A DNA stretch of 64,000 nucleotides from Candidatus Zixiibacteriota bacterium (GCA_011773985.1 WVWN01000084.1:23738-87737); one strand, 5' to 3'; counted from the first letter of the stretch, positions 2,745 through 55,084 are shown. Notes: generated from the sequence alone by a model not told the origin. Translations and numbers: made by a program.

Positions 2745-4151
2745 CTACTCCCCGGCGCCGTCGCGCATCTTCACAACCTCGAACAATCCTATTTTCTCGC
2801 GCCTCCCCTTCAGCTCGGCAAGGCCCAGCGAATTGGCGTCTACGTAATCGTCGACGCGGCGGTACGCTCCCTCCGCCAGGATGATCTGGCCGCCCTCGGT
2901 GTAGGTCTGTATCCGCTGGGCGATGTTCACCGTATCGCCGATGACGGTATAGTCCATCCGCTCGCGCGAGCCGATATTCCCCACGACGGCCTCGCCGAAG
3001 TTGATGCCGATGCCGACGAGCACGGGCTCCTCGCCGCCCAACTCCCGGGCGAGGTTGAACTTGCGGAGGCGCTCGCGCATATCGACCGCGGCGCGCACGG
3101 CGTTGAGCGTGCTGTTCGGCTGCTCGAGCGGCGCGCCGAAGATCGCCATAAGGCCGTCGCCCAGGAACTTATCGAGCGTTCCCTCGTAGCGGAAGACGAC
3201 TTCGGTCATGTAGGTGAGGTAGACGTTGAGCATCGTCACGACTTGCTCCGGGGCAAGCGTCTCGGCGATTAGCGTGAAGCCGCGAATGTCGGCGAAGAGG
3301 ACCGCGACCTCTTTGCGCTGCCCCTTGAGCGTCGAGATATATTTCTCCGGGTCGTTGAGTATCAGCCCGGCGACCTGGCGGGATACGTAGCGGCTGAACG
3401 CGTCGGCTATGAGCTCTTTCTCGCCGAGGGACCTCGCCATCTCGTTGAACGCGCGCGTGAGGTGGCCCACCTCGTCGCGGGTCGTAATACGTACCTGCGT
3501 AGAATAGCCATTACCCTTCTGGATCTTACGGACGCCGTCCATTAAACGGTCGATGGGCCGCGTGATAAACCCGGCTAAAACGAACGAGCCCAAAAGGCCT
3601 CCGAGTAAGGCCCCGGCGAATATCAGGCCTATCGTTATCCTCGTGCGGTTCACGGCCTCCGTGACGCCCTTCTGCGATATGCCCACGTGGACCTCGCCTA
3701 TGGCCTTTCGCCCGGCGAGCATAATGGCGACGCCGACGTCGTACAACGGCCCCCACCTGGCGGCGTCGTAGGTCTGGCTTAAAAATTCGCGGCCGGCCAA
3801 AGGCTCGACGCCGCGGGGCGGCTCGTAGGGCTTACCCAGAAAGGGCGTGAACTCCTCGTGCGCGGCGTCGCGGTAGCCGACGATGCGCCCCTCCTCGCCC
3901 ACGACGACCGCATAAACTACGCCCGGGTTCGCCATAGCGTCGGTCGTGAATCGCGCTATGTAAAGGTCGTCGCCCTGAGAGACGGGGTCCTCGACGTTCG
4001 CGGCGAGGTTACGCGCCAGCGCCTCGCCCCGCATCTCGATTTCCCTCCGAAGGGAGGTCTCCATACGGCGCGTAATGACGAAACCCGCGCCGACCGTAAC
4101 TACGAACGTCAACAGGACGACGAACAGCGCGATCTTAAATTTGAGGGGCAT
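2745..4151 (-). CDS. Membrane-bound class III adenylate/guanylate cyclase with periplasmic sensor region and HAMP linker (468 aa)
   Basis: Start moved to the ATG at 4151, which has GGAGG just upstream; the upstream part of the 542-aa ORF is Arg/Gly-rich read-through. Two TM segments flank a periplasmic region of about 170 aa. HAMP-like TRPIDRLMDGVRK...AFNEMARSL is followed by a cyclase core (VAVLFADIRGFT, GDGLMAIFGAP, GINFGEAVVGNIGS). Confidence 0.88.
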   Translation of the reverse strand: MPLKFKIALFVVLLTFVVTVGAGFVITRRMETSLRREIEMRGEALARNLAANVEDPVSQGDDLYIARFTTDAMANPGVVYAVVVGEEGRIVGYRDAAHEEFTPFLGKPYEPPRGVEPLAGREFLSQTYDAARWGPLYDVGVAIMLAGRKAIGEVHVGISQKGVTEAVNRTRITIGLIFAGALLGGLLGSFVLAGFITRPIDRLMDGVRKIQKGNGYSTQVRITTRDEVGHLTRAFNEMARSLGEKELIADAFSRYVSRQVAGLILNDPEKYISTLKGQRKEVAVLFADIRGFTLIAETLAPEQVVTMLNVYLTYMTEVVFRYEGTLDKFLGDGLMAIFGAPLEQPNSTLNAVRAAVDMRERLRKFNLARELGGEEPVLVGIGINFGEAVVGNIGSRERMDYTVIGDTVNIAQRIQTYTEGGQIILAEGAYRRVDDYVDANSLGLAELKGRREKIGLFEVVKMRDGAGE

Positions 4152-41761: not shown

Positions 41762-44700
41762 ATGATGGAGAGGCGTTGCTGGTGGCGACGCGTCCCCATC
41801 GGCGGCCTTCTCGCTCTCGCGGCCGCGAGCGCCGCGGCCGGGGCGGCCGAGGGCCAACCGCGGTGGGCCGAGACCTTGGCGGCCTCGCGCCATTCCTACG
41901 AGGTCGCGGAAATCGCCGAGGGCGCCACTTATAAATTACCCCACAAGTTTATCTTCTACGATTCCGAAGTCGTACGCGTAGGGGACGACGTCTGGGAGCG
42001 CGGTCGCGAATACCGGCTCGAGTACGACGCCGGGAACCTAACGGTACTCGCGGCGCCGCCCTACGCCGGGCCCTTAGTCGTCGAATACGAATATCTACCC
42101 TTCCTGCAATCGGAAGACTACCGCGCGGCGCTGGAGGGCGAGGACGAGGCCGAGGCGCTCGAGCGCATAGAGGAGGCGGCCGCGGCTCCCTCCCAGCTGG
42201 ACATAACCGGCTCCAAGACCTTCTCCGTCTCGAGCGGCAACGTTCAAGGAACGGACTTCGACCAATCGCTCCGCCTTTCCATCCGCGGGAACGTCGGCGA
42301 CGTCAAGATCACGGGCGAAATCTCCGACCAGGACCTGCCGTTGGAGGAGGGAGGGGCTACGAAGGACGTCGAGGCGGTCGACAAGGTAAGCCTCCGCGTG
42401 GAGGGGCGCCACCTGGCCGGGACCTTCGGCGACTACGACGCAGACGTCACCGGCCGCCGCTTCGCGGAATACCAACGGCGCCTCACGGGCATCAAGGGCG
42501 AAGCCTTCTATCCAACCTGGCGGGCCGACGCCCACGGCGCGCGGGCGCGCGGGCGCTTCGCGAGCAACGAGTTCTACGGCGTCGACGGCGTCCAGGGCCC
42601 GTATCAACTCGCGGCCCGCGACGACGAGAACATTACGGTCCTGCCGGGAACGGAGACGGTATGGCTGAACGGCGTCAAATTAAAAGAGGGGGAGAACAAC
42701 GACTACCTCGTGGAATACGACCTCGCGACCATAACCTTCACGGTCCGGCGGCCCATCTCTGCGGAGGACCGCGTCGTCGTCGACTTCCAATATACGACCG
42801 AGGAATACCAGCGCAATTTCTTCGGCGCGGAGAGCGAGGGGCACTTCGCGGGGGACGCCGTCAACGTCGGCATTTTATATTTACAAGAGGAAGACGACCG
42901 CGACCGCGACTTCTTCGGCCTGGGCGACTACGAGAAGAAGCTTCTGGAGGGGGCGGGCGACGACGAAGAGCGGGCGCGGATCTTCGCGCGCGACGAAAAC
43001 CGCGAGATAATCTTCGAATACGTCGGCGAGGGCCAGGGGGAGTACACGCGCCGCTGGGACCCCGAGAAGGGGAAATACGTCTACGAGTACGTCGGCGCGG
43101 GCAACGGCGACTACATGCCGAGGACGATCCTGCTGCCGATGCCCAAGCGCCACAGCCTCGTCGACGTAAATACGACCCTCGCGCCGTCGCGCCTCATCAC
43201 CGTGGAGGCGGAAGGCGCAACGAGCGACGTCGACGCCAACACCTTCTCGACCCTGGGCGACGCAGACAACACCGGCCTCGCCGGCTCCGCCGCCGCCACC
43301 GTCCGCCTCGACGCGGTCGAACTTTTTCGGCCCGCGGGGGAGTTGGAAGTCCGGCACGTTCAGGAGATGAGGGACAAACGTTTCCGCAACCTCGGCCGGG
43401 ACGACGGCGTCGCATTCTTGCAGGATTGGGACCTCGAGGACGAGGTCGCGGGGCTGGCTCGGCCGCCGGGGTATAACCTTCACGAGACCACCGTCACCGA
43501 GCGGCCCACGCCGGCGCTCGCGCTGTCGGGCACCTACGGCGGCATCCACCAACGCTACGCCGGCGTCTCCGCGAAAGGCTATCGGTATCAGCGCGGCGAA
43601 CGGACCGCGGCCTCCCTCAGCTGGGAGCCCGAGCGTTGGCCGCACGTCGGCTACGACTGGAACAGCGTGCGGCGCCGAGGCCAGCGGGGGGCGCCGCCGG
43701 TCGACCCCGTCGACGAAAAGGTAGGCAAAAAGCTTCTTACCTACGACGAAAACACCCGGCGCGAACAGGAGGGGAAAGTCTCGTACGCGTTCTGGCGGCT
43801 TAGCCCGTACGTCCGAATTCACGATAAGAAACGGCGCGCCGATTACGGCATCGACGGCGCGCCCGACGCCGGCAGCCTCGAGCAGGAGCTCGAGATGGGA
43901 ACGGGCGTGCGGCCGGCCGCGGGTTGGGTCGTCCAGTTCGGCCATACCGTAGGCCGCGGCGAGAAAGTGGACGACTACAAATTTATCCCCCATTACCGCA
44001 AAAGAGAAGAGAGAGCCATCACCTCCTACGATTACCCGGGCCTCGTAAACGTAAACGGCGAATTCACGAGGATAAGGAAAGACTTCTACGCCGCGGACGA
44101 GGGGGACGTCGACACGTACCTGTCGCTCGTCGAAACGGTATATACGCCGCTTGCGCGGGCGCTGGCGATATCGACGCGCTACGAACTCGAAAGCCTGCAG
44201 GAATTCGAGCGCGAAGAAATATTCGAAGTCGCGCCGGACGGCGACGGCGACTACCGGCGCGAAGTCGACCCCAAAAACCCGGGCCGCTACGTCTACATAT
44301 ACGACCCGGACAGCCCGGACGCCATCTACATAAAGAGGTATCGCCCCACGGGCCGGAGGTTCCCGGTCCTGAAGCCGGACCTCACCGTCAGCCTCGGCTT
44401 CCGGCCGTACAGCATCAACGACGCGCGGGGCAGCGCCGGCGAGCGGAACCCCTGGCTGGACGCCGCGGCCGCGGACCTCTACGTACACGCGCGGAACAGC
44501 TCCACGTCGCCGCGCCGCTTCGCCGTCGCGACGCTCCAAGACCTCCTGGCGAAAGATTCTCTCGACAGCAGCCTCGAGCAACGGTACACCCTCACGCTCT
44601 TTCCCGTGCGCCGCCGCGTCACGGGGCTCGCGCGCTACGCGACCAAGGACGACCTCGAGCGAACGGTGGCGTCGCGCCAGGTGCGGCGGAAGCGCACGTC

Positions 44701-45217
44701 GCGATATGCGGAGGTCGTCGGCGAGCCGACCCGCCGCCTTACGGTCCAAGTCGACGTGGAAAGGGTGCGGGAACGGGAAACGGTGACGGAGGAGAACATA
44801 AGTCGACCCGAGAATACGTACGCCAAAGAGATGCTATACGGCGTGGAACCGACCTACAGCTTGACGGCGCGCTTGGACGTCAAGGCGCGGGGCGAGCTTT
44901 CGCAGCGGCACGAGGATTACAACGGCGCGTCGACCCACATAAAGGGCATCGTAACCAAACCCGAAGTCACGTACCGCCTGGCGGAATCGGGCGTGGCGAA
45001 CGTATGGTACGAGAGGTCGCAGTTCGACGTTTCCGGGTATACCGGCTCGGAGACGCTGCTCGTGCGCGTCCCGGGCGTAACCCACAAGTGGGAGGCGAGC
45101 GTCAACAAGGGCGTAGGCCAATACGTGACGCTCATCTTCACGTACGACGGCGAAAAAAGGCCGGACGAGGAGATAACGAGCCATCGGGGCCGGGTCGACG
45201 TAAACATATACTTCTGA
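41762..45217 (+). CDS. Very large predicted outer-membrane protein of unknown family (about 1151 aa)
   Basis: The ORF is open from 41717; ATG 41762 gives the signal peptide MMERRCWWRRVPIGGLLALAAASAAAGAAEG. The protein is beta-rich with many aromatic-x-aromatic segments, and its C-terminal residue is Phe (RVDVNIYF). Its stop overlaps the Omp85 start (TGATG). Confidence 0.7.
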   Translation: MMERRCWWRRVPIGGLLALAAASAAAGAAEGQPRWAETLAASRHSYEVAEIAEGATYKLPHKFIFYDSEVVRVGDDVWERGREYRLEYDAGNLTVLAAPPYAGPLVVEYEYLPFLQSEDYRAALEGEDEAEALERIEEAAAAPSQLDITGSKTFSVSSGNVQGTDFDQSLRLSIRGNVGDVKITGEISDQDLPLEEGGATKDVEAVDKVSLRVEGRHLAGTFGDYDADVTGRRFAEYQRRLTGIKGEAFYPTWRADAHGARARGRFASNEFYGVDGVQGPYQLAARDDENITVLPGTETVWLNGVKLKEGENNDYLVEYDLATITFTVRRPISAEDRVVVDFQYTTEEYQRNFFGAESEGHFAGDAVNVGILYLQEEDDRDRDFFGLGDYEKKLLEGAGDDEERARIFARDENREIIFEYVGEGQGEYTRRWDPEKGKYVYEYVGAGNGDYMPRTILLPMPKRHSLVDVNTTLAPSRLITVEAEGATSDVDANTFSTLGDADNTGLAGSAAATVRLDAVELFRPAGELEVRHVQEMRDKRFRNLGRDDGVAFLQDWDLEDEVAGLARPPGYNLHETTVTERPTPALALSGTYGGIHQRYAGVSAKGYRYQRGERTAASLSWEPERWPHVGYDWNSVRRRGQRGAPPVDPVDEKVGKKLLTYDENTRREQEGKVSYAFWRLSPYVRIHDKKRRADYGIDGAPDAGSLEQELEMGTGVRPAAGWVVQFGHTVGRGEKVDDYKFIPHYRKREERAITSYDYPGLVNVNGEFTRIRKDFYAADEGDVDTYLSLVETVYTPLARALAISTRYELESLQEFEREEIFEVAPDGDGDYRREVDPKNPGRYVYIYDPDSPDAIYIKRYRPTGRRFPVLKPDLTVSLGFRPYSINDARGSAGERNPWLDAAAADLYVHARNSSTSPRRFAVATLQDLLAKDSLDSSLEQRYTLTLFPVRRRVTGLARYATKDDLERTVASRQVRRKRTSRYAEVVGEPTRRLTVQVDVERVRERETVTEENISRPENTYAKEMLYGVEPTYSLTARLDVKARGELSQRHEDYNGASTHIKGIVTKPEVTYRLAESGVANVWYERSQFDVSGYTGSETLLVRVPGVTHKWEASVNKGVGQYVTLIFTYDGEKRPDEEITSHRGRVDVNIYF

Positions 45218-47082
45218 TGTTTAGAGTCCGCGGCATAACTATTTCGTTGGCGACGACGGCCGCCGTCGCGCTTGGCGCGCCGGAGTTAACCGTCGAGGGG
45301 AACGCGGCGTTCTCCGACGCGGAAATCGAGGTGGCGGCGACCCGCGCCGGCTTCGTGGACGAGGCCGCCGTCGAACGACTTTACCTGCGCGCCGGCTACC
45401 TGGACGTCGACGTGGAGCTCGCGGAGGAGGCGGGCCGGCCGCCGCGGTTGATCGTCTCGGAAGGCGAACGCTACCGCGTGGCAACGCTGGCGGTGGACAA
45501 CGCGTCGCCGCTGAGCCGGGACGAGGTGGCCTCGTTCATACCGTTCGGCGCGGGCGACCCGCCGTCGCCTCCGGACCTGAAAGAAGGCCTTACGTCGCTC
45601 TTGGCGACGCTGGCCGGACGGGGCTATATACGCGCCCAGGCGGAATACGCCATAACGGAGGCCGGCCCGGGCCGGGCCGACGTCGCGGTCGCGGTGCGCG
45701 CGGGCGAGCGGTATACCGCGGGCGAAATCGATTTGTTGGGCGTCGCCCCGGGCGACCAAGAGAAGATACGCACGGAGCTCGAGACGCGCCGGGGCAAGCC
45801 GCTGAAAGAGCGAGCGCTCGCGCGCGACCTCCTCGCCGTCATCGACTATTACCGCAAACGCGGATATCCCGAGCCGTCGGCACGCCCGCGAGGCTTCGAG
45901 ATCGCCGAACAGTATAAGGAGATAGATTTCAACGTTGAGGTCGAACCGGGAAGTAAAGTAACCATCAATAGCATAGACATCGTCGGGAACCGGCGGACGC
46001 GCGACGAGGTCATCCGGCGGGAACTCAGCGTCGTACCCGGCGACCCGTACGACCTCGAGCGACTGCGCGAGAGCGCGCGGCGCGTATACGGCCTTAAATA
46101 CTTCGAGGCCGAGCCGGCGGTGGAGTTGGCGGACGCGGAAACGGGGCGGCTGCGGGTCGCGGTCGCGGAGCGGCGGACCTACCGCGTTACGGGCGCGCTC
46201 GCGTACGAGCCGGCGCGGGGCGAGGCGACCGCGGCCGTCATCGGCGAAATGGAGGCGCGCCTCGCCAACCTCGGCGGCACGGGCCGGGAAGCCGACGCGC
46301 ACTATCGCCGCCTCGCCGCGGAAACGATGGACGCGAGCGCCAAGTACTACGAACCCTGGATAGCGGGTATAGACCTGTTCGCCGAACCGAGCGGCGCGTA
46401 CAAAGGACGCGCCGAGTACCGGAAGGCCGGCGGCGAACTGGCCCTCGGGACCCACCCCTTATCGGACCTGGCCATCGCCGCGGGGGCGGGCTTCGACCGC
46501 GTCTGGAAAGAAAACGCGAGCCGTAAGTACAAGATTTTCACCTGGGCCACGCTCGACAGTAGGGATTATTTCGACAACCCGCGCCGAGGTTGGCAGGCGC
46601 ACGGGCGCCTCGAGCTCGGCGTCAAGGAATACTTAGCCGACGACTTCCGCGAGCGCGTCCCGCGCCTCGAGCTCGACGTTTGGCGGTTCTGGCCCACTAC
46701 GCGCAACCAGGTCCTCGCCGGCCGCCTCGGCGCCTGGGGGTTATGGTCGCAGCGGCCGGGCCTGGACGAGTTTTACCCGCTCGGCGGCCACGCCGACCTC
46801 CGCGGCTTCAGAGAGGAACAATTCCTAAGCGACCGCCAGGTCCTGGCCACCGCCGAATATCGCTTCCTGACGGGCCGCGGGAGCCGCCTATTCGTATTCG
46901 TCGACAGCGCCTACCGGCACCTGAAAACCGAGAAAACGTTCGCGGAAGGCTTCGAGCTCGGTTACGGCGCGGGCTTCCGGGCCGCGACGCGCGTCGGCAT
47001 ATACGGCGTGGATTACGGCCTGGCCGCCGGCGAAAGCCCGCTCGACGGTAAAATACACGTCTCGATTACGCAAGAGTTCTAA
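45217..47082 (+). CDS. Omp85/BamA-family outer-membrane protein with POTRA repeats (621 aa)
   Basis: Start moved to ATG 45217. About four POTRA-like units are present (for example VTINSIDIVGNRRTRDEVIRRELSVVPGDPYDLERLRESARRVYGLKYFE). Bacterial surface-antigen barrel; C-terminus HVSITQEF. Confidence 0.85.
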   Translation: MFRVRGITISLATTAAVALGAPELTVEGNAAFSDAEIEVAATRAGFVDEAAVERLYLRAGYLDVDVELAEEAGRPPRLIVSEGERYRVATLAVDNASPLSRDEVASFIPFGAGDPPSPPDLKEGLTSLLATLAGRGYIRAQAEYAITEAGPGRADVAVAVRAGERYTAGEIDLLGVAPGDQEKIRTELETRRGKPLKERALARDLLAVIDYYRKRGYPEPSARPRGFEIAEQYKEIDFNVEVEPGSKVTINSIDIVGNRRTRDEVIRRELSVVPGDPYDLERLRESARRVYGLKYFEAEPAVELADAETGRLRVAVAERRTYRVTGALAYEPARGEATAAVIGEMEARLANLGGTGREADAHYRRLAAETMDASAKYYEPWIAGIDLFAEPSGAYKGRAEYRKAGGELALGTHPLSDLAIAAGAGFDRVWKENASRKYKIFTWATLDSRDYFDNPRRGWQAHGRLELGVKEYLADDFRERVPRLELDVWRFWPTTRNQVLAGRLGAWGLWSQRPGLDEFYPLGGHADLRGFREEQFLSDRQVLATAEYRFLTGRGSRLFVFVDSAYRHLKTEKTFAEGFELGYGAGFRAATRVGIYGVDYGLAAGESPLDGKIHVSITQEF

Positions 47083-47134: not shown

Positions 47135-47908
47135 GTGGTGCAATACCTTCAAATCGCCGGGGTGGCCGCGGCGTTCTTCGTAGGCGCCTTCGCGGGAAAC
47201 TTCTACCACCTCATCGTGCACCGCCTGGCGGGCGGCGGCTTTCGCGTCGTCTTGCCCCCGGCCTGTCCCTCTTGCGGCCGGACGGACCGGCGCGTATGGA
47301 TGCTCCCGATTTTGTGGTATCCAATACTCCGGGGACGGTGCCCGGGGTGCGGCTTTCGGTACCGCAAAAGCCTGGTCCTATGGGAAGGCGCGGGCGGCGC
47401 GGTCGCGGCGTTGTTGTTTTACTACTTCGGCTTCTCGTTGACGTTCGCGACGGCGTTCCTGTGTTGTTTTTTCTTTCTTATGAACTACTGGGTGGAATTC
47501 CGCTACGGCGTCCTCGTGCCGCAACTCTACTTCCCGGCCCTCGCCGCGGGCCTGGCGCTGTCCTTCTTGCCCGGGGCGCCGAGCCCCGTGGGCGCGGTCG
47601 CGGGAGCCCTTTTGGGCGGCGGCCTGCTGCTCGCGGTCCGTCCGGGGCGCGCGCTTTTCTCGGAGAACGTTCGGGGCACGGAACGGCAGCTCGCGCTGGT
47701 AGCGCTGGCGGGCGTCTTCCTCGGGTGGCAGAGCGCGCTGTTCGTGCTCGCCGCGGCCGCGGTCGCGGCGTGGCTCGTACCCGTAATAGGTCGCCGGATA
47801 TTCGGCGCCGACCCGGAAAACGTGTTCGGCTTGGCCGTACTAGCCGCCACCCTTGCGATGGTACTCTACCGCGCGGACATAACGTCGTGGTATTTTCGGG
47901 TCAGGTAA
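47135..47908 (+). CDS. Prepilin peptidase (A24) homologue lacking both canonical catalytic Asp motifs (257 aa)
   Basis: The N-terminal Cys-rich domain CPSCG...GRCPGCG and the polytopic TM body align with PilD-type enzymes (LALVALAGVFLGWQ against KLLAMLGAWGGWQ). The catalytic positions, however, read VEF/VPQ and GTERQL instead of D...PD and GxGDxKL. Confidence 0.7.
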   Translation: MVQYLQIAGVAAAFFVGAFAGNFYHLIVHRLAGGGFRVVLPPACPSCGRTDRRVWMLPILWYPILRGRCPGCGFRYRKSLVLWEGAGGAVAALLFYYFGFSLTFATAFLCCFFFLMNYWVEFRYGVLVPQLYFPALAAGLALSFLPGAPSPVGAVAGALLGGGLLLAVRPGRALFSENVRGTERQLALVALAGVFLGWQSALFVLAAAAVAAWLVPVIGRRIFGADPENVFGLAVLAATLAMVLYRADITSWYFRVR

Positions 47909-47982
47909 AAATTATCGTTGACGACGGCAACGTCCGCTGAGCGTCGGCGCAAACGCTGAAGCGCCGGCCGGCCAGCGAAAAT

Positions 47983-49257
47983 ATGCCTACCTACGAGTTA
48001 ATCGTCTACGGCTGCCAGATGAACGACTACGACGGCGAGAAGTTGGCCGCAATCATGGAGGCGGCCGGCTACGAACGGGCCGCGGAAGGAGACGCCGCGG
48101 ACGTCGTCTTGGTATACACGTGCGCGGTCCGACAATCGGCGACGGCCCGGGCGCTCGGGCGCATAACGTCGCTCGCGCGCGTCAAAAAAGACAACCCGCG
48201 CGCGATAATCGGCGTGGGCGGCTGTTGGCCCGCGGTCGAGAGCGACGTCATCGAACGCGCCTGCCCCCACGTGGACTTTACGTTCGGCACGACCGAGCTG
48301 GAGAACGTTCCCGCGGCCCTGGCGGAAATATCGGGCGAACGCGGGCCGTCGGTCCCGGCCGAGGTCTCGCCTCTGCGCAAGAGCTGGCCGCGGGCGAACG
48401 TCGCGATCATGCGCGGCTGCAACAACTTCTGCTCGTACTGCGTCGTACCGTACGCACGGGGCGCGGAGACCTACCGGCCGGCCGACGACGTCCTCAAGGA
48501 AGTCGAGGAGCTCCTGCGAGCCGGTTTTAAAGACATTACGCTCATAGGGCAAAACGTGAACTCGTACCGCCGAGGGGAGGTTACTTTTGCCCGCCTCCTG
48601 AAAAAAGTCGACGCGCTGTGCGACGGCGTCTTCCTGCGGTTTATCACGAACCACCCGCGCGACTTCGGCGACGACGCGGTGGACGCGCTCGCGCAAGGCC
48701 GCAACGTCGCCCGCCACCTCCACCTGCCGCTGCAAAGCGGCTCGGACGCCATATTACACGCCATGAACCGCGGCTACGACATGAACCGTTACCTCGACGT
48801 CGTATCGAAGGTGCGCGAAGCGGTCCCGGGAATCTGCTTAACGACGGACCTGCTGGTCGGCTTCCCGGGCGAGACGGAGGCGGCGTTCGAGGAAACGTAC
48901 CGCGCGCTCGAGGAGATAAGGTTCGACAGCGCGTACGTCTTCATCTACTCGAGCCGCCCGGGCACCGCGGCCGCGGCACTCGAAGACGCCTTGCCGCGCG
49001 CGGAAAAAGTAAACCGCCTGCAAACCCTCGCGGCACGCCAACGGGCGATATCGCTCGAAATAAACCGGGGACTAATAGGCGAGGAGACCGTAGCGCTCGT
49101 GGAGGGCCGAAGCGCAAAAAACGCCGGCGAGCACGCCGGCAGGTTAAGCGAAAGCAAAATCGTCAACTTCGGCGGGAAAGCTCGGGCGGGCGAATTCATA
49201 GCGGTAAAAATTACCGCGGCGTCCCCGTGGACGTTAAGGGGCGAGCTGGTAACTTAG
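47983..49257 (+). CDS. miaB: tRNA-i6A37 methylthiotransferase (424 aa)
   Basis: UPF0004 N-terminal domain (YGCQMNDYD), radical SAM cluster CNNFCSYC and a C-terminal TRAM domain. Confidence 0.88.
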   Translation: MPTYELIVYGCQMNDYDGEKLAAIMEAAGYERAAEGDAADVVLVYTCAVRQSATARALGRITSLARVKKDNPRAIIGVGGCWPAVESDVIERACPHVDFTFGTTELENVPAALAEISGERGPSVPAEVSPLRKSWPRANVAIMRGCNNFCSYCVVPYARGAETYRPADDVLKEVEELLRAGFKDITLIGQNVNSYRRGEVTFARLLKKVDALCDGVFLRFITNHPRDFGDDAVDALAQGRNVARHLHLPLQSGSDAILHAMNRGYDMNRYLDVVSKVREAVPGICLTTDLLVGFPGETEAAFEETYRALEEIRFDSAYVFIYSSRPGTAAAALEDALPRAEKVNRLQTLAARQRAISLEINRGLIGEETVALVEGRSAKNAGEHAGRLSESKIVNFGGKARAGEFIAVKITAASPWTLRGELVT

Positions 49258-49330: not shown

Positions 49331-49492
49331 TTATCCCTTCCTCGCACGCCGCGTCCAAAAAGCGTGGAAGATAATCGCGGCCGCGACGGTATCAACCGCC
49401 AAGAGTTGACAAAAAACCATCAACTCGCTTTGGGGGGGAGGGAGGACTATTAAATGGACCAACCGGAATATAACGAACAGCAGAGTTGCCAT
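49331..49492 (-). CDS. Possible 53-aa two-TM mini-protein at the end of the rSAM operon
   Basis: ATG lies 36 nt after the methyltransferase stop with GAGGTG upstream. Sequence is MATLLFVIFRLVHLIVLPPPQSELMVFCQLLAVDTVAAAIIFHAFWTRRARKG. GC3 is lower than in neighbouring genes, so the call is uncertain. Confidence 0.3.
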   Translation of the reverse strand: MATLLFVIFRLVHLIVLPPPQSELMVFCQLLAVDTVAAAIIFHAFWTRRARKG

Positions 49493-49528
49493 GGGTCACC
49501 TCGCCTTCGGTAAAAATCCGTTAAAGCT

Positions 49529-50308
49529 TCAACGAACTTTCCTCGCCGCCGCGTAGAATATTGGCAAAAAGTAACACCGCTCCCCTCTCGATATAGCCCC
49601 CGCGCGGGCCCGCGCCGCCGACCGCAACCGCCGCCGGTCCGTCGTCGGCTCGAGTAAGGTTTCCAACAACTTCAGCTCTTGGTTCTCCTCGACGGCCCAG
49701 CGCGCGACGGTCCACGCCGAGTTCAACACGCCGAGGGTGAAGACGTCGAATCCTGCGCGGCTTAAAAGGGCCGGGATTTTTCGGCCCGTGGCCGGGTCGC
49801 CGCCCCACCGCCGGACCGCCCGCGCTACCTCCTCCCGCGTCGACGCCGCGGGCGGGTAATCTATTGCCCCCTCGTAGTCCGGCTCCGCCAACGCCACGAA
49901 AATGCCGTCCGTCTTCAAAACCCTTCGGGCTTCGTTCAAAAAGGCGGCGGGTTCGGCGAGCCACACGAGAACGAACGCCACGACTACCGCGTCGATGACG
50001 CCGTCGCGGAAGGGCAAGGCCGCGGCGTCGGCGGCCGCGAACCGCGCCCCCAGGCGACGCGCCCGCGCCGCCCGTAAAACGTCCACGCGCCGGTCGACGC
50101 CGAACGCGCCGCGGGCCGCCCGACGCGCCAGCTCCGCGGTCACGACGCCGCTCCCGCAACCGACCTCCAAAATCCGCGCGAAGCGCCTCAGGCCCAGTTG
50201 CCGGTAGAGCTCGCGCCGGTGCGCCTCGTACCAGGCGGCCTGCCGCTCCTCCTCCTCGGGCGTCAGGAACGGCCCGGCTTCAACTCTCGATTCTATCCCC
50301 CCCTCCAT
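49529..50308 (-). CDS. Class I SAM-dependent methyltransferase (259 aa)
   Basis: Start moved to ATG 50308, overlapping the rSAM stop by 1 nt (TAATG). SAM motif I ILEVGCGSGVVTAELA; post-I and motif II regions are present (FAAADAAALPFRDGVIDAVVVAF). Confidence 0.8.
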   Translation of the reverse strand: MEGGIESRVEAGPFLTPEEEERQAAWYEAHRRELYRQLGLRRFARILEVGCGSGVVTAELARRAARGAFGVDRRVDVLRAARARRLGARFAAADAAALPFRDGVIDAVVVAFVLVWLAEPAAFLNEARRVLKTDGIFVALAEPDYEGAIDYPPAASTREEVARAVRRWGGDPATGRKIPALLSRAGFDVFTLGVLNSAWTVARWAVEENQELKLLETLLEPTTDRRRLRSAARARAGAISRGERCYFLPIFYAAARKVR

Positions 50309-51690
50309 TACGCCGGGTTGGACGCGGCGTCGGGGCAACAGAAGACCCTCTCGTACTTGACGGAGAGCGGGCACCCGGCGCCGCAGATCTCGAAATCGGG
50401 GCACTCTCGGCACCGAGCGGGCGCGTATCGGCGCTCGCGGAGCTCCCGCGCCAGCTCGTTGTCGAAGACGGTATCCCAATCGTCCCTTAAAATGTTGCCC
50501 AGCGGTTGGTAAAAAGACTGGCAGGGGATGACGTCGCCGTTCGGCTCGACGCACATGTTGTACTTGGCCGCGGTGCACTGCTTGACGCCCAGGTCCATCG
50601 TCAGCGGGTTGAAGCGGCAATATTGCGTCGGCGTGTACCAGACGAAGGTCATATCGTTCGCGGCGCAGGCGGCAACGAATCGGCTCAGAATCGGGCCAAG
50701 CGCGCTCTCGGGAAGGCCGAGGTCGACGTCGCGCGCGCCGCCGGCGTTGATGATGCCGTTGGCGGCGACGTGCTCCACGCCCAGCGAGGCGAGGAACGCC
50801 ACGAGTTCCTCCACGTCGTCGGCGTTCTCGCTCGTGATGGTCGTATTGGTCATTACGTAAACGGGGCTCGCGACCGCGTTCTCGATGCCGGCGACGGTCT
50901 CGTCGAAAGCGCCCGTCGCGCCCACCATCTTATCGTGTACGTCGGGTACGGAGGAGTGTATGGTGATCTGGACGTGGTCGAGGCCGGCCTCGGCGAGGGC
51001 GTTCATATAGTCGGCATCTTTGAGCTTGCGGCCGTTGGTCAACAGGCCCGTGATGACGCCCAGCTCCTCGGCGTACTCGACGAGCTCGACCAGGTCCGGG
51101 TGCTGGGTCGGTTCGCCGCCCGTGAAACAAATATGGGGGATGCCGAGCCCCCACACCTTCGCGATGACGCGCTTGAAGTCCTCGGCGCTCAACACCTCGC
51201 CCGCGCGCGGCGTCTCGTTATAACAGTGCGGGCACGCGTTGTCGCAGCCGTACGTCAGGGCTATGTCCATCCGATAGGGCGCCTCGACGTCGACGGTGAA
51301 GGGGTCTACGCGTTCGGCGCCCAGGTACGATATCGGGCAACGCTCGTCGCCGCGCGCCATCATCTCGATGGTTTCGCGCAGGCGCGCGAGGTCCCGCCCG
51401 AGTTCCTTCTTGCCCACGCGGTACCTTTTCGCCATCGTCTTGACGATGCGGTCGTCGGGCCACTCCTCCAGGACGTAGCGCGCCATCTCGGCGCCGGTCT
51501 GATTAAGGTGCAAGATGCGCGCCGCGTTTATCATAAGTATGCCCTCGCCGCCCGGGTTTACGCGCAGGTGCAGGCGCGCTTGCAATTCGGCGTCCTGGCG
51601 TCTGAGATGATATATCCCCGACTCCAGCGGCCTCTGCTTGGCTAATATCTTATCGTAAAACTTTTTACCTATTCCCATACGAGTCGACAT
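50308..51690 (-). CDS. Radical SAM/SPASM peptide-maturase-type enzyme with N-terminal PqqD-like (RRE) domain (460 aa)
   Basis: Start moved to ATG 51690. CX3CX2C motif CDNACPHC and FTGGEPT are present. SPASM signature: NGDVIPC (G-x4-C) and CRECPDFEICGAGC (CX2CX5CX3C). The N-terminal segment ILMINAARILHLNQTGAEMARYVLEEWPDDRIVKTMAKRYRVGKKELGRDLARLRETI resembles PqqD. Confidence 0.88.
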   Translation of the reverse strand: MSTRMGIGKKFYDKILAKQRPLESGIYHLRRQDAELQARLHLRVNPGGEGILMINAARILHLNQTGAEMARYVLEEWPDDRIVKTMAKRYRVGKKELGRDLARLRETIEMMARGDERCPISYLGAERVDPFTVDVEAPYRMDIALTYGCDNACPHCYNETPRAGEVLSAEDFKRVIAKVWGLGIPHICFTGGEPTQHPDLVELVEYAEELGVITGLLTNGRKLKDADYMNALAEAGLDHVQITIHSSVPDVHDKMVGATGAFDETVAGIENAVASPVYVMTNTTITSENADDVEELVAFLASLGVEHVAANGIINAGGARDVDLGLPESALGPILSRFVAACAANDMTFVWYTPTQYCRFNPLTMDLGVKQCTAAKYNMCVEPNGDVIPCQSFYQPLGNILRDDWDTVFDNELARELRERRYAPARCRECPDFEICGAGCPLSVKYERVFCCPDAASNPA

Positions 51691-51718
51691 TTTAATTGCG
51701 CAGGCCGCGGCGCCGTAA

Positions 51719-53332
51719 TCACCGGCCGCCGCCCGCGCAGGCGCAGGCGCACCCGGCACAGGCGCAGGCGCACGCGCAGCCGCCGCCCCAGCCCCCCGGC
51801 CGGCTCGTCGTTGCCGGCGGCGGGTTGGTCGTGGCCGTCACCTTGGCCGTGAAGGATTCCACTTTGGAGACGACGTTGCCCGCGATCCCCTCAAGCCGCG
51901 TTACGACGCCGTTCGCGAAGCTCGCGCCGGGGAGCGTCGGCATGTCGAAGGAGACGCCGCCTCCCGGCCCGGCCGCCGGGGCGAGGTGCCCCCACCAAAA
52001 AGGCGGCGGCAGGTGGTAGCCAACGAAGACGTCGCGCGTGCGCCCCCCGAAGTCATCGTCGAGCATGGTCCACTCGAGGCCGTTGGTAAACTCCTCGAGC
52101 TTGACCTGGGGCGTATCGGCCTCCTCCACGAGGCGCCACGCCGTCTTGACGATCTTGCGGTAATACGCCACCGTCTCCCGGTGTGAGAAGCCCTTCATCT
52201 TCCTCTGCACCGACTTGATCAAGGATATCAACATCTCCCCCAAGCGGTCCTCGCCGAGGGCCCCGTCGGGTTCGACGCACGCGACGAAATCGTTCTCGTA
52301 CGCCCTCAAGCCGTTCTCTTTGAAGGGTAACTTCTCGACCTTCAACGGCTCCTGTGAAGCTACGGCGAGGGCACCCTTCTTGACGAGGCCAAAGAGGACC
52401 AGCGTAAGAACCGCGTTGAGCGGCCTCTCCAGTATCACCGCGGCCTCGGGCGCGGTGAGGCCCCGTTTTATCCCCACCCCCTCCACCTTGGCCTGGGGCG
52501 GAAAATACTTCATGCGTCGGCGGCGCCTGTTCGCCACGCCGGCGACGGCTATCAACGCGAATATACCCAAAGGAACAAGGCAACCGCAGAATTGCGTCGC
52601 AAGTGCCACCAGGCCGCCGAACAGGCCGCCGAGCCGACCGGCCCGCGGCGGCGAACGCACCTCGGCGACGGCGTCCCGCGGGAACGATATGCCGAAGGAA
52701 TATTTTTCCGAGGGCGACGCCTCCTCCCGTTCCCAGACGTAGTGGACGCGGCCTTCCTCCACAAACATCCGCGTCGGCTCGCCGCCCTCGTCCTCGTGCC
52801 AGCGGGCCTGCTCGGCCGTAACGGCGGGAGGGAATACGAAGGTCATCGTGAGGTGCGTGGAGCCGGTGGTGAATTCGGAGGCGAACCAGGTGGGACTGAA
52901 TACGCAGGAGGCGTACGCGTCGTCGACCGCGTCCTCGAAGACCATACGGTCGTTCCGGCCGCGGACGTGGAGCGTAGCGGCGTCGCCCGGCGGAATGGCA
53001 TAGTCGCCGAGGGGTATCTCGACGCCGACGTCTACATACTCGGAAGGTCTTATTGCGTCCAGCGTTTCGCCGTCGACATCCGCGGTTACGGACGCGAGGT
53101 CGTAATCGTCGGACGGGAAGCCCACGTCGACGACGTCTATTGGGGACCCGGAGGCGGTGTTGCGAAAAGTTATTTCATAATCAATATCGAGCGAGGAGTC
53201 GTCGTTGACCGTCACGGCAACGACCTCGCGCGGGACCTCGAAGTAATAATCCTGCGCCGCGACGGGCGACGACGCCGCGGCGAATGCGACGCACGATAAA
53301 AACGCCGCTACGCTACGTCTCGACGTTTCCAT
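51719..53332 (-). CDS. DUF2207-like membrane protein ending in a Gly/Cys/Ala tail with seven alternating cysteines (537 aa)
   Basis: Signal peptide followed by an extracytoplasmic domain starting YYFEVPREVVAVTVNDDSSLDIDYEITF. A TM region is followed by NRRRRRMKY, then a cytoplasmic part with LTAPEAAVILERPLNAVLTLVLFGLVKKGALAV. The C-terminus is TSRPGGWGGGCACACACAGCACACAGGGR. Confidence 0.85.
   Translation of the reverse strand: METSRRSVAAFLSCVAFAAASSPVAAQDYYFEVPREVVAVTVNDDSSLDIDYEITFRNTASGSPIDVVDVGFPSDDYDLASVTADVDGETLDAIRPSEYVDVGVEIPLGDYAIPPGDAATLHVRGRNDRMVFEDAVDDAYASCVFSPTWFASEFTTGSTHLTMTFVFPPAVTAEQARWHEDEGGEPTRMFVEEGRVHYVWEREEASPSEKYSFGISFPRDAVAEVRSPPRAGRLGGLFGGLVALATQFCGCLVPLGIFALIAVAGVANRRRRRMKYFPPQAKVEGVGIKRGLTAPEAAVILERPLNAVLTLVLFGLVKKGALAVASQEPLKVEKLPFKENGLRAYENDFVACVEPDGALGEDRLGEMLISLIKSVQRKMKGFSHRETVAYYRKIVKTAWRLVEEADTPQVKLEEFTNGLEWTMLDDDFGGRTRDVFVGYHLPPPFWWGHLAPAAGPGGGVSFDMPTLPGASFANGVVTRLEGIAGNVVSKVESFTAKVTATTNPPPATTSRPGGWGGGCACACACAGCACACAGGGR
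51734..51778 (-). repeat. Hexanucleotide (TGCGCC-like) coding repeat specifying (Cys-Ala)n
   Basis: Minus strand reads TGCGCGTGCGCCTGCGCCTGTGCCGGGTGCGCCTGCGCCTGCGCG, encoding CACACACAGCACACA. Confidence 0.9.
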
Positions 53333-53356
53333 ATCCCAAAAAGAGGGCGACGGCCG

Positions 53357-53767
53357 TCACCACTTGGGCTCCTCTTCGACCTCGTACGACGTGCCGCAAT
53401 AGGGGCAGGTCACCACAACCGCCCCCGCTTTGACGTCGATATTATCTTTGGATAGGGCCGCGCCGCACGCCCGGCACTTCAACTCCTCGAGCGACAAATC
53501 GCCCGGGAGGTCGATCTGTTGTACGACGGTCCGCGGCTTCTCGGCTTGATAACGCTTATAGGAACGGTACGCCAAGACGCCGGCGCCGGCGATAAGCAAA
53601 AGGCCCACGAGGGTAGTAGCGCCGCCTACCAAAAGACGGCCGCTCGACTTGCCTTCAGCCTGAGCCTCGTCCGAAAAAGCGGCCCACAGAAAAAGAACGC
53701 CGAAGAAGACGAGGACCAGCGCAAGGACGGCCATCGGCACGGCAATTACGCACCCGCCGAACTTCAT
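53357..53767 (-). CDS. Membrane protein with two TM helices and a C-terminal zinc ribbon (136 aa)
   Basis: Two hydrophobic helices, then CRACGAALS...VTCPYCGTSYEV (CxxC...CxxC). It is the first gene behind the operon promoter. Confidence 0.75.
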   Translation of the reverse strand: MKFGGCVIAVPMAVLALVLVFFGVLFLWAAFSDEAQAEGKSSGRLLVGGATTLVGLLLIAGAGVLAYRSYKRYQAEKPRTVVQQIDLPGDLSLEELKCRACGAALSKDNIDVKAGAVVVTCPYCGTSYEVEEEPKW

Positions 53768-53809
53768 ACGTCTATACTATCGTGGCCGATCCGTAAAAAT
53801 CTTTTTAAC

Positions 53810-53838
53810 ATAATAAAGTATATAGTTTCTTATTGCAA
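53810..53838 (-). promoter_or_regulatory. Sigma70-type promoter of the zinc-ribbon/Cys-tail/rSAM operon
   Basis: Minus strand reads TTGCAA-N17-TATTAT (-35 at 53833-53838, -10 at 53810-53815) within an AT-rich island. Confidence 0.6.
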
Positions 53839-54130
53839 CAGTAATCGGGGCCTAACGGCGGGCGGCGAAAAACGGCGCAAAGTTGAAGGCCCGCAAGATA
53901 AAAATTTACGCGGTTTCGCCGTTACCCGGCCCGCGTGTTCCATAAAACGCAACCGCGGGCGGAAACGACCCGCGCGCCGCCGCGGCACCTCTCCGCCGGG
54001 AGACCGGCTCTGTCCCCCCGGCCCCGCCTACATAATATGAAACCGCCCTCCTTCTTCGAGGAGAGCGGATTGGCGCCGGCGGCCAAAACCTCTCGGCCCC
54101 GGCGGGCACTCTTCCTTTATGGCGCTACGC

Positions 54131-55084
54131 TCACCTGTTTTGGTACCGGTCAACAAGCGCTCTGAACAGGTCTATGGCTGCGGCGAGGGTTATGTTTCGC
54201 CGCTCTATCCGGACCTTGTTGCCCAAGACCTCGATGCCGATGAATATCTCGGCCTCCTCTCTGTAGGCCGGCTCCGCCGCGGGGGGCGGCGCAGGTTCGG
54301 GCGCGGCCTCGGCCGCCACGCCGGCGAGTACTTCCTCGCGGGGCGGCGGGACCGGCGGCGCGGGAGGCGCCACCTCGCGGAGTTCCTCTTCGATCGTCGC
54401 TTTAATGGCCTCGGCCTCTTCCTCCCGCAAAGCAGGTTCGCCCACGGCGGCAGGTTCCGGCCCGACGGGCACTTCCTCTTCCGCCGGGGGCGCCTCAAAC
54501 TCTCCGGCGGCCGCCACGGCCGGCTCCACCTCTATCTCAAGCTCGGGGGGAAGCTCGAACGCTGGGGGCACCACCTCTTCCGGCGGCGGGGGCGCTTCCG
54601 TGGGCACGGCCGCTTCAACGGGGGGCGCTTCGGCCGTATCCCACGGTTGGGGCGCCATCACTTCGCTAACGCCCTCCAAGTCGAGCTCCGTCAACTCCAA
54701 GCTCGCGAACGTATCCTCCAACGGCGGCGGGATTTCGGGCGCCTCGGCCGCAAACGCCGCTTCGGGAGGCGGCGCAAACGCCGGCGGCACCTCGGGCGGC
54801 GCCGCGGGCGGCTCCTGGGGCGCGTGTTCCGCTACCGGGAGGACCTTCTCTTCGTCTAAGGGAATCGCCGAAGGTTCGGGCGGCGCCGGGAAAGAACTCA
54901 GGTCGAAGTCGCTCTCGGGCGCCTCGATAGCTTCCAGGCCCGAGGGCAACGATTCCTCGACCGCCTCGAGCGGCGTCTCGAACTTATCGAACTCGCCGCT
55001 CGCTATCCGTTCCTTGAGCCGGCGGGCGCGCTCCTCGTTCCTTCTCTTTATCGCCTCGATTGGGTCCTCGAATTCCTCGGCCAT
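54131..55084 (-). CDS. Highly acidic Pro/Glu/Ala-rich protein with short structured termini (317 aa)
   Basis: Residues from about 40 to 270 are low-complexity (PPEV, APPPPEE, EPAAV repeats). The C-terminal 45 aa are ordered-looking (EIFIGIEVLGNKVRIERRNITLAAAIDLFRALVDRYQNR). GGAG RBS. Confidence 0.65.
   Translation of the reverse strand: MAEEFEDPIEAIKRRNEERARRLKERIASGEFDKFETPLEAVEESLPSGLEAIEAPESDFDLSSFPAPPEPSAIPLDEEKVLPVAEHAPQEPPAAPPEVPPAFAPPPEAAFAAEAPEIPPPLEDTFASLELTELDLEGVSEVMAPQPWDTAEAPPVEAAVPTEAPPPPEEVVPPAFELPPELEIEVEPAVAAAGEFEAPPAEEEVPVGPEPAAVGEPALREEEAEAIKATIEEELREVAPPAPPVPPPREEVLAGVAAEAAPEPAPPPAAEPAYREEAEIFIGIEVLGNKVRIERRNITLAAAIDLFRALVDRYQNR

Follow-up and report, generated by a model that had tools for sequence, protein, structure and literature searches.

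Which substrate does a peptide-modifying radical S-adenosylmethionine (SAM) enzyme act on when no small precursor peptide is evident beside it? This question is raised by an operon at positions 49331-53838 of a 64,000-nt stretch of DNA from Candidatus Zixiibacteriota bacterium (GCA_011773985.1 WVWN01000084.1:23738-87737), the whole of which is referred to here as the window. Its five open reading frames (ORFs) are co-directional, tightly packed on the minus strand, and were all found as a first-pass annotation of the sequence had described them. In operon order, and with intergenic gaps of 24, 28, -1, and 36 nt, they encode a zinc-ribbon membrane protein (ZnR), a large membrane protein (MEM) with a (Cys-Ala)n tail, a radical SAM/SPASM enzyme (rSAM) with an N-terminal RiPP recognition element (RRE; RiPP, ribosomally synthesized and post-translationally modified peptide), a class I SAM-dependent methyltransferase (MT), and a 53-aa protein. 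We propose that the RRE-bearing rSAM, together with MT where present, probably modifies the cytoplasmic tail of MEM in place, and that the product resembles a cofactor rather than an antibiotic. Comparative genomics gives this interpretation strong support.

The conservation of the tail carries the argument. MEM ends in GGWGGGCACACACAGCACACAGGGR, and all 120 listed homologues of the 515 retrieved by a word-indexed search end in CACACACAGCACACAGGGR, sometimes with one further CA, even at 35-45% overall identity. As such a search could favour sequences that share words of the tail, two independent checks were made. An exhaustive profile search covering 1.84 billion representatives retrieves MEM homologues in 1227 representative clusters at 50% identity (E<=1e-3; 469 at E<=1e-30), and 132 of the best 148 profile matches carry a (CX)n tail of the (CA)n type, the other 16 being truncated fragments. 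Moreover, 80 metagenome loci retrieved by two rSAM motifs alone (45-87% identity) contain 57 copies of the tail, which share identical 19 residues encoded by 56 different DNA sequences. Among these copies the number of non-synonymous changes is 0 and every codon varies synonymously: both Cys codons occur at ~55:45, and the copies draw on all four Ala, all four Gly, and six Arg codons as well as on each of the three stop codons. Selection on this segment is extreme, and its conservation lies far beyond chance.

At 51735-51783, Tandem Repeats Finder detects an array of period 6, as would be expected if a GC-rich (GCGCAG)n hexamer merely happened to read Cys-Ala, so that the tail would be a low-complexity artefact or its position beside rSAM a coincidence. 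Because 56 DNA sequences encode the same tail, the DNA repeat is a consequence of the peptide and not its cause. The varied Cys, Ala, Gly, Arg, and stop codons refute the artefact, which was rejected on the basis of the synonymous-codon analysis, and synteny across phyla and domains of life argues against a coincidence; we assign practically no probability to either.

Between branches the tail varies within narrow bounds. Asgard and Methanomassiliicoccales archaea have (CA)6GGGR, Myxococcota, Planctomycetes, and Hydrogenedentes have CACAGCACACACAGGGR, and one clade has CVCACVSCACVCACVSCACACAGGGAG. The constant feature is a run of 5-8 Cys alternating with small residues (A, V, S, G), followed by GGG(R). 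In the six frames of the window no other (CX)n>=4 stretch occurs, which agrees with the initial proposal that the tail of MEM is the only Cys-rich candidate substrate.

The tail is also linked to the enzyme. For a tail-selected set, one genome per GTDB species was scanned for the tail, resulting in 79 loci, of which 74 have a true MEM; the rSAM-selected set comprises the 80 metagenome loci mentioned above. An rSAM orthologue (39-53% identity) adjoins MEM in ~63 of the 74 tail-selected loci, and the tail or MEM is found immediately upstream of rSAM in 63 of the 80 rSAM-selected loci. Homologues of rSAM are thus indeed syntenic with Cys-tailed proteins. Bacterial carriers in the tail-selected set are Anaerolineae and other Chloroflexi, Acidobacteriota, Aminicenantes, Planctomycetota, Polyangiaceae, and Hydrogenedentes, along with five Firmicutes loci, and the archaeal carriers are Methanomassiliicoccales, Thermoplasmatota, Nanoarchaeia, and Heimdall- and Hodarchaeota. 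The syntenic system additionally occurs in Zixibacteria-like metagenome-assembled genomes, and a cultured carrier among the Chloroflexi is Ornatilinea apprima P3M-1. The genes usually follow the order ZnR-MEM-rSAM; in Planctomycetes and Myxococcota the order is ZnR-rSAM-paralogue-MEM-MT. Since the core is unchanged across distant bacterial phyla, with (CA)nGGGR reaching into Asgard archaea, a basic cellular function is implied.

No conserved small Cys-rich precursor ORF fits into this arrangement: the gaps measure 24-36 nt, and the only small ORF, the 53-aa one, is hydrophobic and lineage-restricted, so that the absence of a small precursor noted at first sight still holds. Further, genes for a protease, an ATP-binding cassette (ABC) exporter, or immunity are not conserved in the neighbourhoods examined in any lineage. 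These absences bear on a classical RiPP pathway, in which MEM would serve as a very large leader and the modified tail would be set free as a small thioether peptide after cleavage, e.g. close to the Gly/Ser linker. The enzyme does have the architecture of a RiPP maturase, precursors of the Nif11/NHLP type are known to have large leader domains, and tandem MEM paralogues beside a single rSAM at some loci (L077 and L158) resemble multi-precursor RiPP loci. However, besides lacking genes for release and immunity, the system has a core that is invariant across domains of life, the opposite of the hypervariability usual for RiPP cores, and its "leader" is a membrane protein that is itself conserved and consists of several domains, including an ectodomain. 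We therefore consider a released peptide quite improbable. Rather, the invariant core, the absence of release and immunity genes, and the housekeeping context suggest that the product is a protein-bound cofactor or functional group, following the logic of QhpC or mycofactocin. In the metagenome contig L158, the tail-encoding genes lie in tandem at 2305-2361 and 4037-4099, upstream of the single rSAM.

The enzyme has the features of a peptide maturase throughout its length. The motifs CDNACPHC and GGEPT (residues 191-195) and the complete SPASM signature, all recognized in the first-pass annotation, are accompanied by Pfam matches to Radical_SAM (PF04055, 3e-28) and to SPASM (PF13186 / TIGR04085, 1.9e-9), the latter above the gathering score. 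Sets of 17 and of 25 orthologues show no variation at the cysteines of the CxxxCxxC motif (C149, C153, C156), which in radical SAM enzymes holds the [4Fe-4S] cluster that cleaves SAM; SPASM domains can accommodate two auxiliary [4Fe-4S] clusters. In the orthologue alignments C372, C380, C390, C427, C430, C436, and C440 are invariant as well, while C358 and C452 are present in at least 90%; the SPASM domain spans approximately residues 350-452. The N-terminal extension, which had been suspected to be a PqqD-type RRE, covers approximately residues 20-115 (51346-51633), and a PqqD match is found in 16 of 17 orthologues (best E 7e-7). In the AlphaFold2 (AF2) model of rSAM (predicted local distance difference test, pLDDT, 80; predicted template modelling score, pTM, 0.81), four short strands (residues 25-62) are followed by three helices (residues 64-112), a predicted winged-helix, PqqD-like topology that corresponds to the beta-beta-beta-alpha-alpha-alpha order of an RRE. 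Foldseek searches with this model return SkfB (6efn) as the best match (E 1.6e-18, template modelling (TM) score 0.61/0.72) and SuiB as the second-best, with alignments of ~470 columns (471) that thus include the RRE; CteB (5why) and PqqE are also found, and anSME ranks lower. PqqE, SkfB, and SuiB are likewise the top matches in a PDB sequence search.

Despite this family resemblance, rSAM reaches no equivalog cutoff among the best 25 of 70 NCBIfam matches. The best is PqqE (TIGR02109) with 113.6 bits against a cutoff of 381; the mycofactocin maturase (TIGR03962) scores 101.9 against 265, StsB 92 against 625, SkfB 76 against 300, and AlbA 67 against 850. By sequence, rSAM appears to represent an uncurated clade of RiPP-type maturases. 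Its true start may lie at 51678, because homologues begin at MGIGKK.

How is the tail presented to this enzyme? In the AF2 model of MEM (mean pLDDT 74), residues 30-220 form a beta-sandwich ectodomain (pLDDT > 90), residues 232-273 membrane helices, and residues 290-440 a winged-helix-like and helical domain assigned to the cytoplasm (pLDDT 80-90), while the C-terminus from residue ~453 on, comprising linker and tail, is disordered (pLDDT < 50). A signal peptide, an ectodomain of ~230 aa, and a transmembrane region followed by RRRRR had been read from the sequence before, and this layout is recovered from the ORF, from hydropathy, by which the N-terminus is signal-peptide-like, and from the AF2 model. 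The ectodomain is acidic (D+E 41 vs K+R 14). Based on the positive-inside rule and the RRRRR after the transmembrane region, the tail is placed in the cytoplasm; MEM would thus adopt an N-out/C-in topology with the tail alongside rSAM, MT, and the zinc ribbon.

A leader-like segment precedes the tail. The motif F-x4-T-x2-T-N-P-P-P lies just ahead of the disordered Gly/Ser/Pro linker, with a median of 16 residues before the first tail cysteine. F494, T499, T502, N503, and P504 are invariant in the A1 alignment of homologues, and across the family the full motif is present in 159 of 251 members and TNP in 190 of 251. Because of its leader-like distance from the tail, we regard the motif as a candidate docking segment for the RRE.

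MEM as a whole matches no curated family. Neither the window protein nor its Ornatilinea homologue nor the Firmicutes variants has a Pfam or NCBIfam match, even at E<=10, and the MEM profile yields a single, spurious match against PDB sequences (E = 0.049). Foldseek matches of the whole model are dominated by the ectodomain, which resembles the N-domain of M1 aminopeptidases/LTA4H and OST1/ribophorin I (Ost1p) at E ~1e-7 and a TM score of ~0.25, a likeness that, in the model, is one of fold only. Some homologues reach 765-838 aa (P0036, P0048, P0060, P0067, P0089, P0241-P0246), with the ectodomain duplicated or an N-terminal domain added (PF06439 in P0089). The tail stays constant in the family, and what lies outside the cytoplasm is modular.

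A sister family in Firmicutes repeats the arrangement in a condensed form. It comprises 3240 members at E<=1e-5, is found in Lachnospiraceae, Clostridium, and Oscillospiraceae, many of them from gut and rumen, and consists of proteins of 315-433 aa (P0389-P0508; loci L075:7977-9212, L076, L077:7499-10136, and L078:7836-9137). Like MEM, these proteins combine an ectodomain and a transmembrane segment with a Ser/Gly-rich linker and (CA)nGGGR, and their gene directly adjoins an rSAM/SPASM gene, the product of which is 30-32% identical to the window rSAM. In contrast to the separate ZnR of the window, their zinc ribbon is internal, fused in cis. The Cys array is internal as well: it is preceded by SSCAHSS, and the linker leads into SSCAHSSCACACACACAGGGRAGC(S/T)xKDFYxTxLKL, so that (CA)nGGGR is kept and continues into AGC(S/T)xKDFYxTxLKL, with a basic extension after it. 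Of the 120 listed members, 119 contain (CX)nGGGRAGC and 120 the zinc ribbon, and their annotation reads 'hypothetical' or 'zinc ribbon domain-containing protein' only. No MT was seen at the sister-family loci examined, a further difference from the MEM system; the neighbouring genes are housekeeping ones (TsaB/D/E, RimI, IspD). That Firmicutes carry the zinc ribbon on the same polypeptide lends support to the view that ZnR and MEM of the window are functionally linked. At L077, three tandem sister paralogues follow a single rSAM.

Several observations weigh against in-place modification of the tail. Approximately 12 informative rSAM-selected loci from three lineages, with or without MT, have no MEM within 7 kb, and ~6 MEM loci have no rSAM within 8 kb; the linkage between MEM and rSAM is strong, not absolute. 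Split operons are the simplest explanation of the unlinked loci, and no alternative Cys-rich ORF was found within 7 kb of the ~12 rSAM orthologues that lack MEM. Furthermore, MT is missing from many loci, and the PqqD score of the window rSAM itself (18.8 bits, residues 55-104) is below the threshold of 23.4 bits. Both the role of the tail as substrate and its modification are inferred, and the specific chemistry is taken from analogy only, with relatives that include SuiB, which forms a C-C cross-link, as well as PqqE and anSME.

Alternating Cys-X is also well known as a pattern that binds metals, so an unmodified tail could itself be functional, as a metallothionein-like CxCxCxC array binding metal or an Fe-S cluster. 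In that case rSAM would be a partner and not a modifier, using the tail as a donor or acceptor of clusters or sulfur, or acting on a non-peptide substrate of the membrane complex. The 5-8 alternating Cys with only small spacers (A, V, S, G), the zinc-ribbon partner, the occurrence of the system mainly in anaerobes, and the separation of rSAM from MEM in some genomes are all in keeping with such an array. On the other hand, metal-binding tails normally tolerate substitutions, whereas here not even the Ala, Gly, and Arg residues vary. Moreover, the RRE, a peptide-docking domain, is conserved in 16 of 17 orthologues, the nearest structural relatives of rSAM are all peptide maturases, and rSAM directly follows the tail-encoding gene. 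We thus judge the unmodified metal-binding tail to be unlikely, if the most serious of the competing explanations.

A different substrate is conceivable within the same operon. ZnR has two hydrophobic, presumably membrane-spanning helices and a CRAC...CPYC zinc ribbon, as first annotated (CxxC...CxxC), recognizable by hydropathy and weak Pfam matches, and is encoded directly upstream of MEM in most loci. Its C-terminus, ...YQxxEEPKW, is kept in 35 bacterial orthologues, with the EEPKW end at 53357-53380 in the window. As SuiB is the second-best structural match of rSAM, this invariant end could be a substrate or co-substrate that receives a Lys-Trp cross-link, as in SuiB-made streptide. However, Asgard loci keep MEM and rSAM together with zinc-ribbon ORFs that lack EEPKW, the fused Firmicutes version lacks it as well, and the feature common to all lineages is (CA)nGGGR. 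ZnR is therefore a very unlikely substrate in place of the tail. Independently of this question, the Lys-Trp pair at an invariant C-terminus, encoded next to an enzyme that resembles SuiB, could be modified in addition to the tail.

The remaining genes are accessory to varying degrees. MT, described from the outset as a class I enzyme overlapping the rSAM stop by 1 nt, matches Methyltransf_11 (1e-19) and Methyltransf_25 (2e-17), in line with the Rossmann-fold SAM-binding domain of this class; its start codon (ATG at 50308) and the stop codon TAA of rSAM (50310-50308) have one base in common, an overlap that suggests translational coupling. The nearest NCBIfam model is the DVU_1556 MTase (73 bits against a cutoff of 155), and no specific equivalog is reached. 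MT is found in ~45 of the 74 tail-selected loci, sometimes a few kb off or on the opposite strand, and is a frequent, not a universal, component.

The 53-aa ORF, listed initially as a possible two-helix protein, is a real gene in this lineage, because ORFs 53-64% identical to it occupy the same position in three related contigs (L080, L081, L083). It was not found in other phyla by tblastn on the tail- and rSAM-selected loci and is, by sequence, a lineage-specific accessory. Its hydrophobic character, the lack of any conserved Cys, and its restriction to a single lineage led to its rejection as a precursor.

Some lineages carry an additional rSAM paralogue, located between rSAM and MT or between rSAM and MEM, a gene that is absent from the lineage of the window and from archaea. 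In Chloroflexi, the paralogue is degenerate (L024:11141-12301 in Ornatilinea apprima and equivalent positions in ~35 Chloroflexi loci): the RRE-like N-terminus is kept, and CxxxCxxC and the SPASM Cys are lost. These Chloroflexi proteins probably lack activity and could serve as partners in binding the substrate. The second paralogue of Planctomycetes and Myxococcota is a weaker match (e.g. L059:6621-7712, with a sub-threshold Radical_SAM match beginning at profile position 29).

Taken together, modification of the tail in place could proceed as follows. MEM would be a type I membrane protein with its beta-sandwich ectodomain outside, one transmembrane helix, and the winged-helix-like/helical domain in the cytoplasm, where a flexible Gly/Ser/Pro linker of ~16 residues would present the 19-residue (Cys-Ala)n-GGGR tail. 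The rSAM/SPASM enzyme would dock via its N-terminal RRE, likely on FxxxxTxxTNPPP, and modify the tail while the latter stays on MEM. The 5'-deoxyadenosyl radical would abstract a hydrogen from an Ala or Gly carbon, which a Cys thiol at an auxiliary cluster would then attack, and several thioether cross-links would result in a rigid 'ladder'. By analogy with enzymes of the SkfB, CteB, and AlbA type, multiple Cys thioethers are the most likely outcome; other radical chemistry on Cys and Ala is possible. MT would place at least one methyl group on a thiol or on the C-terminal carboxylate, and ZnR would act as an obligate membrane partner, in trans here and in cis in Firmicutes.

Features of the operon and of MEM in the window, with the evidence for each
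Feature	Position	Strand	Basis and remarks
Terminator-like hairpin	54068..54043	-	3' of the gene upstream of the operon; pattern match only
Promoter-like TTGCAA-N17-TATTAT, sigma-70-like	53810..53838	-	Consensus scan, pattern match only; 5' of the first gene (ZnR)
ZnR, 136 aa	53357-53767	-	ORF, hydropathy, weak Pfam zinc-ribbon matches
MEM, 537 aa, predicted single-pass membrane protein	51719-53332	-	ORF, AF2 model
MEM ectodomain, predicted beta-sandwich, residues ~26-232	52637..53257	-	AF2 pLDDT > 90
MEM predicted membrane-spanning region, residues ~234-269, then RRRRR	52526..52633	-	Hydropathy; AF2 helices 232-273
MEM motif F-x4-T-x2-T-N-P-P-P, residues 494-506	51815..51853	-	Conservation among homologues
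MEM tail CACACACAGCACACAGGGR, 19 residues, 519-537	51722..51778	-	Invariant; proposed modified core
rSAM/SPASM enzyme with N-terminal RRE, 460 aa	50308-51690	-	Pfam, AF2, Foldseek
MT, class I SAM-dependent methyltransferase, 259 aa	49529-50308	-	Methyltransf_11
Small protein with two predicted transmembrane helices, 53 aa	49331-49492	-	ORF conserved in related contigs

The single consensus promoter assigned to the operon at first is present as a pattern and less firm as a promoter: TTGCAA-N17-TATTAT matches the consensus at 9 of 12 positions, and with 2 such sites seen in the region against 0.9 expected, it is plausible, though statistically not strong. Among the neighbours of the operon in the window, MiaB, prepilin peptidase, BamA, and fumarase are housekeeping functions, and no transport or protease genes are present. 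The operon converges on the gene for MiaB, another radical SAM enzyme (window 47135-49257 and 43924-47082, plus strand), which is preceded by a prepilin-peptidase-like gene and a BamA/Omp85 gene. This arrangement is the same in L080, L081, and L083 and reflects lineage synteny, not a functional link. Upstream of the operon, 54131-55084 (minus strand) encodes an extremely acidic, Pro/Glu/Ala-rich protein of 317 aa with no family match. It is kept only in the closest relatives (L080, L081, L083, L084), its ends being better conserved than its repetitive middle, and was rejected as a component of the system since it is confined to these genomes.

Known systems share parts of this design. The products of sactipeptide and ranthipeptide maturases are defined by thioether cross-links from Cys sulfur to C-alpha, C-beta, or C-gamma. 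With these maturases (SkfB, AlbA, CteB, StsB; SCIFF), the window enzyme has the RRE-rSAM-SPASM architecture in common, and the candidate substrate is likewise a Cys-rich C-terminal segment encoded beside the enzyme. Their substrates, however, are peptides of 40-60 aa with variable cores, whereas the candidate here is the C-terminal end of a membrane-anchored protein that has several domains and 537 aa; its core is invariant, and neither a protease nor an exporter is present. In the cofactor systems (QhpD/QhpC, PqqE/PqqD on PqqA, MftC on MftA), an rSAM/SPASM enzyme likewise has a strictly conserved substrate, and what is made benefits the cell that produces it; the Cys thioethers formed by QhpD lie within a retained protein subunit, QhpC. 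Unlike in these systems, no dehydrogenase, PqqA/B/C, or Mft genes lie near the window operon, and the core is borne by a membrane protein that has an ectodomain.

The ACGX-repeat/rSAM_ACGX system (TIGR04340/TIGR04341), which presumably also places an Ala/Cys/Gly-rich repetitive core beside an rSAM/SPASM enzyme, is a lead rather than a test. Its repeat is ACGX, whereas here a Cys-Ala repeat is borne by a large carrier protein, and TIGR04340 is not among the best 25 of 70 NCBIfam matches of rSAM. DUF2207/TIGR04222 proteins, to which we take a similar layout to belong (signal peptide/transmembrane segment, ectodomain, transmembrane segment, cytoplasmic domain, Gly-rich tail), had been suggested as relatives of MEM. 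This suggestion finds no support from profiles: neither MEM nor its homologues match the hidden Markov models of DUF2207 (PF09972) or TIGR04222, even at E<=10, and MEM differs in its single transmembrane segment after the ectodomain, its Cys-Ala tail, and its linkage to rSAM. Screened for anti-phage defence systems, the operon gives in PADLOC only generic domain similarity of the rSAM (pVip) and the MTase (mad2) and nothing for MEM or ZnR. A literature search, which did not cover subscription journals and leaves a prior description possible, found no paper on this system. Thus, the early impression that no described system is involved agrees with the lack of a family model for MEM, of an rSAM cutoff reached, and of a literature match. 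The enzyme class is known; judged by sequence, the type of substrate, its absolute conservation, and the gene set, namely ZnR, a tailed MEM, and an RRE-rSAM, with or without a pseudo-rSAM and MT, appear to match no curated family.

RRE-dependent rSAM/SPASM enzymes are known for small, variable, and secreted peptides, and here such an enzyme is tied to the C-terminal end of a large membrane protein, in a family that counts 1227 clusters and more than 3000 sister sequences and has neither a Pfam nor an NCBIfam model. More speculatively, and in our view rather doubtful at this stage, the modified tail might be a membrane-tethered, protein-derived prosthetic group, e.g. a poly-thioether or metal-binding ladder, made by a dedicated RRE-rSAM. 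It would then belong to an ancient module that couples extracytoplasmic binding to cytoplasmic redox or metal chemistry and is common to Firmicutes, Chloroflexi, Planctomycetes, relatives of methanogens, and Asgard archaea, and it would be the first RiPP-type maturation in place of a large membrane protein. If modification of the MEM tail is true, RiPP-type chemistry extends to the in-place maturation of proteins, and anaerobes could turn out to possess a new protein-bound cofactor or metal site.

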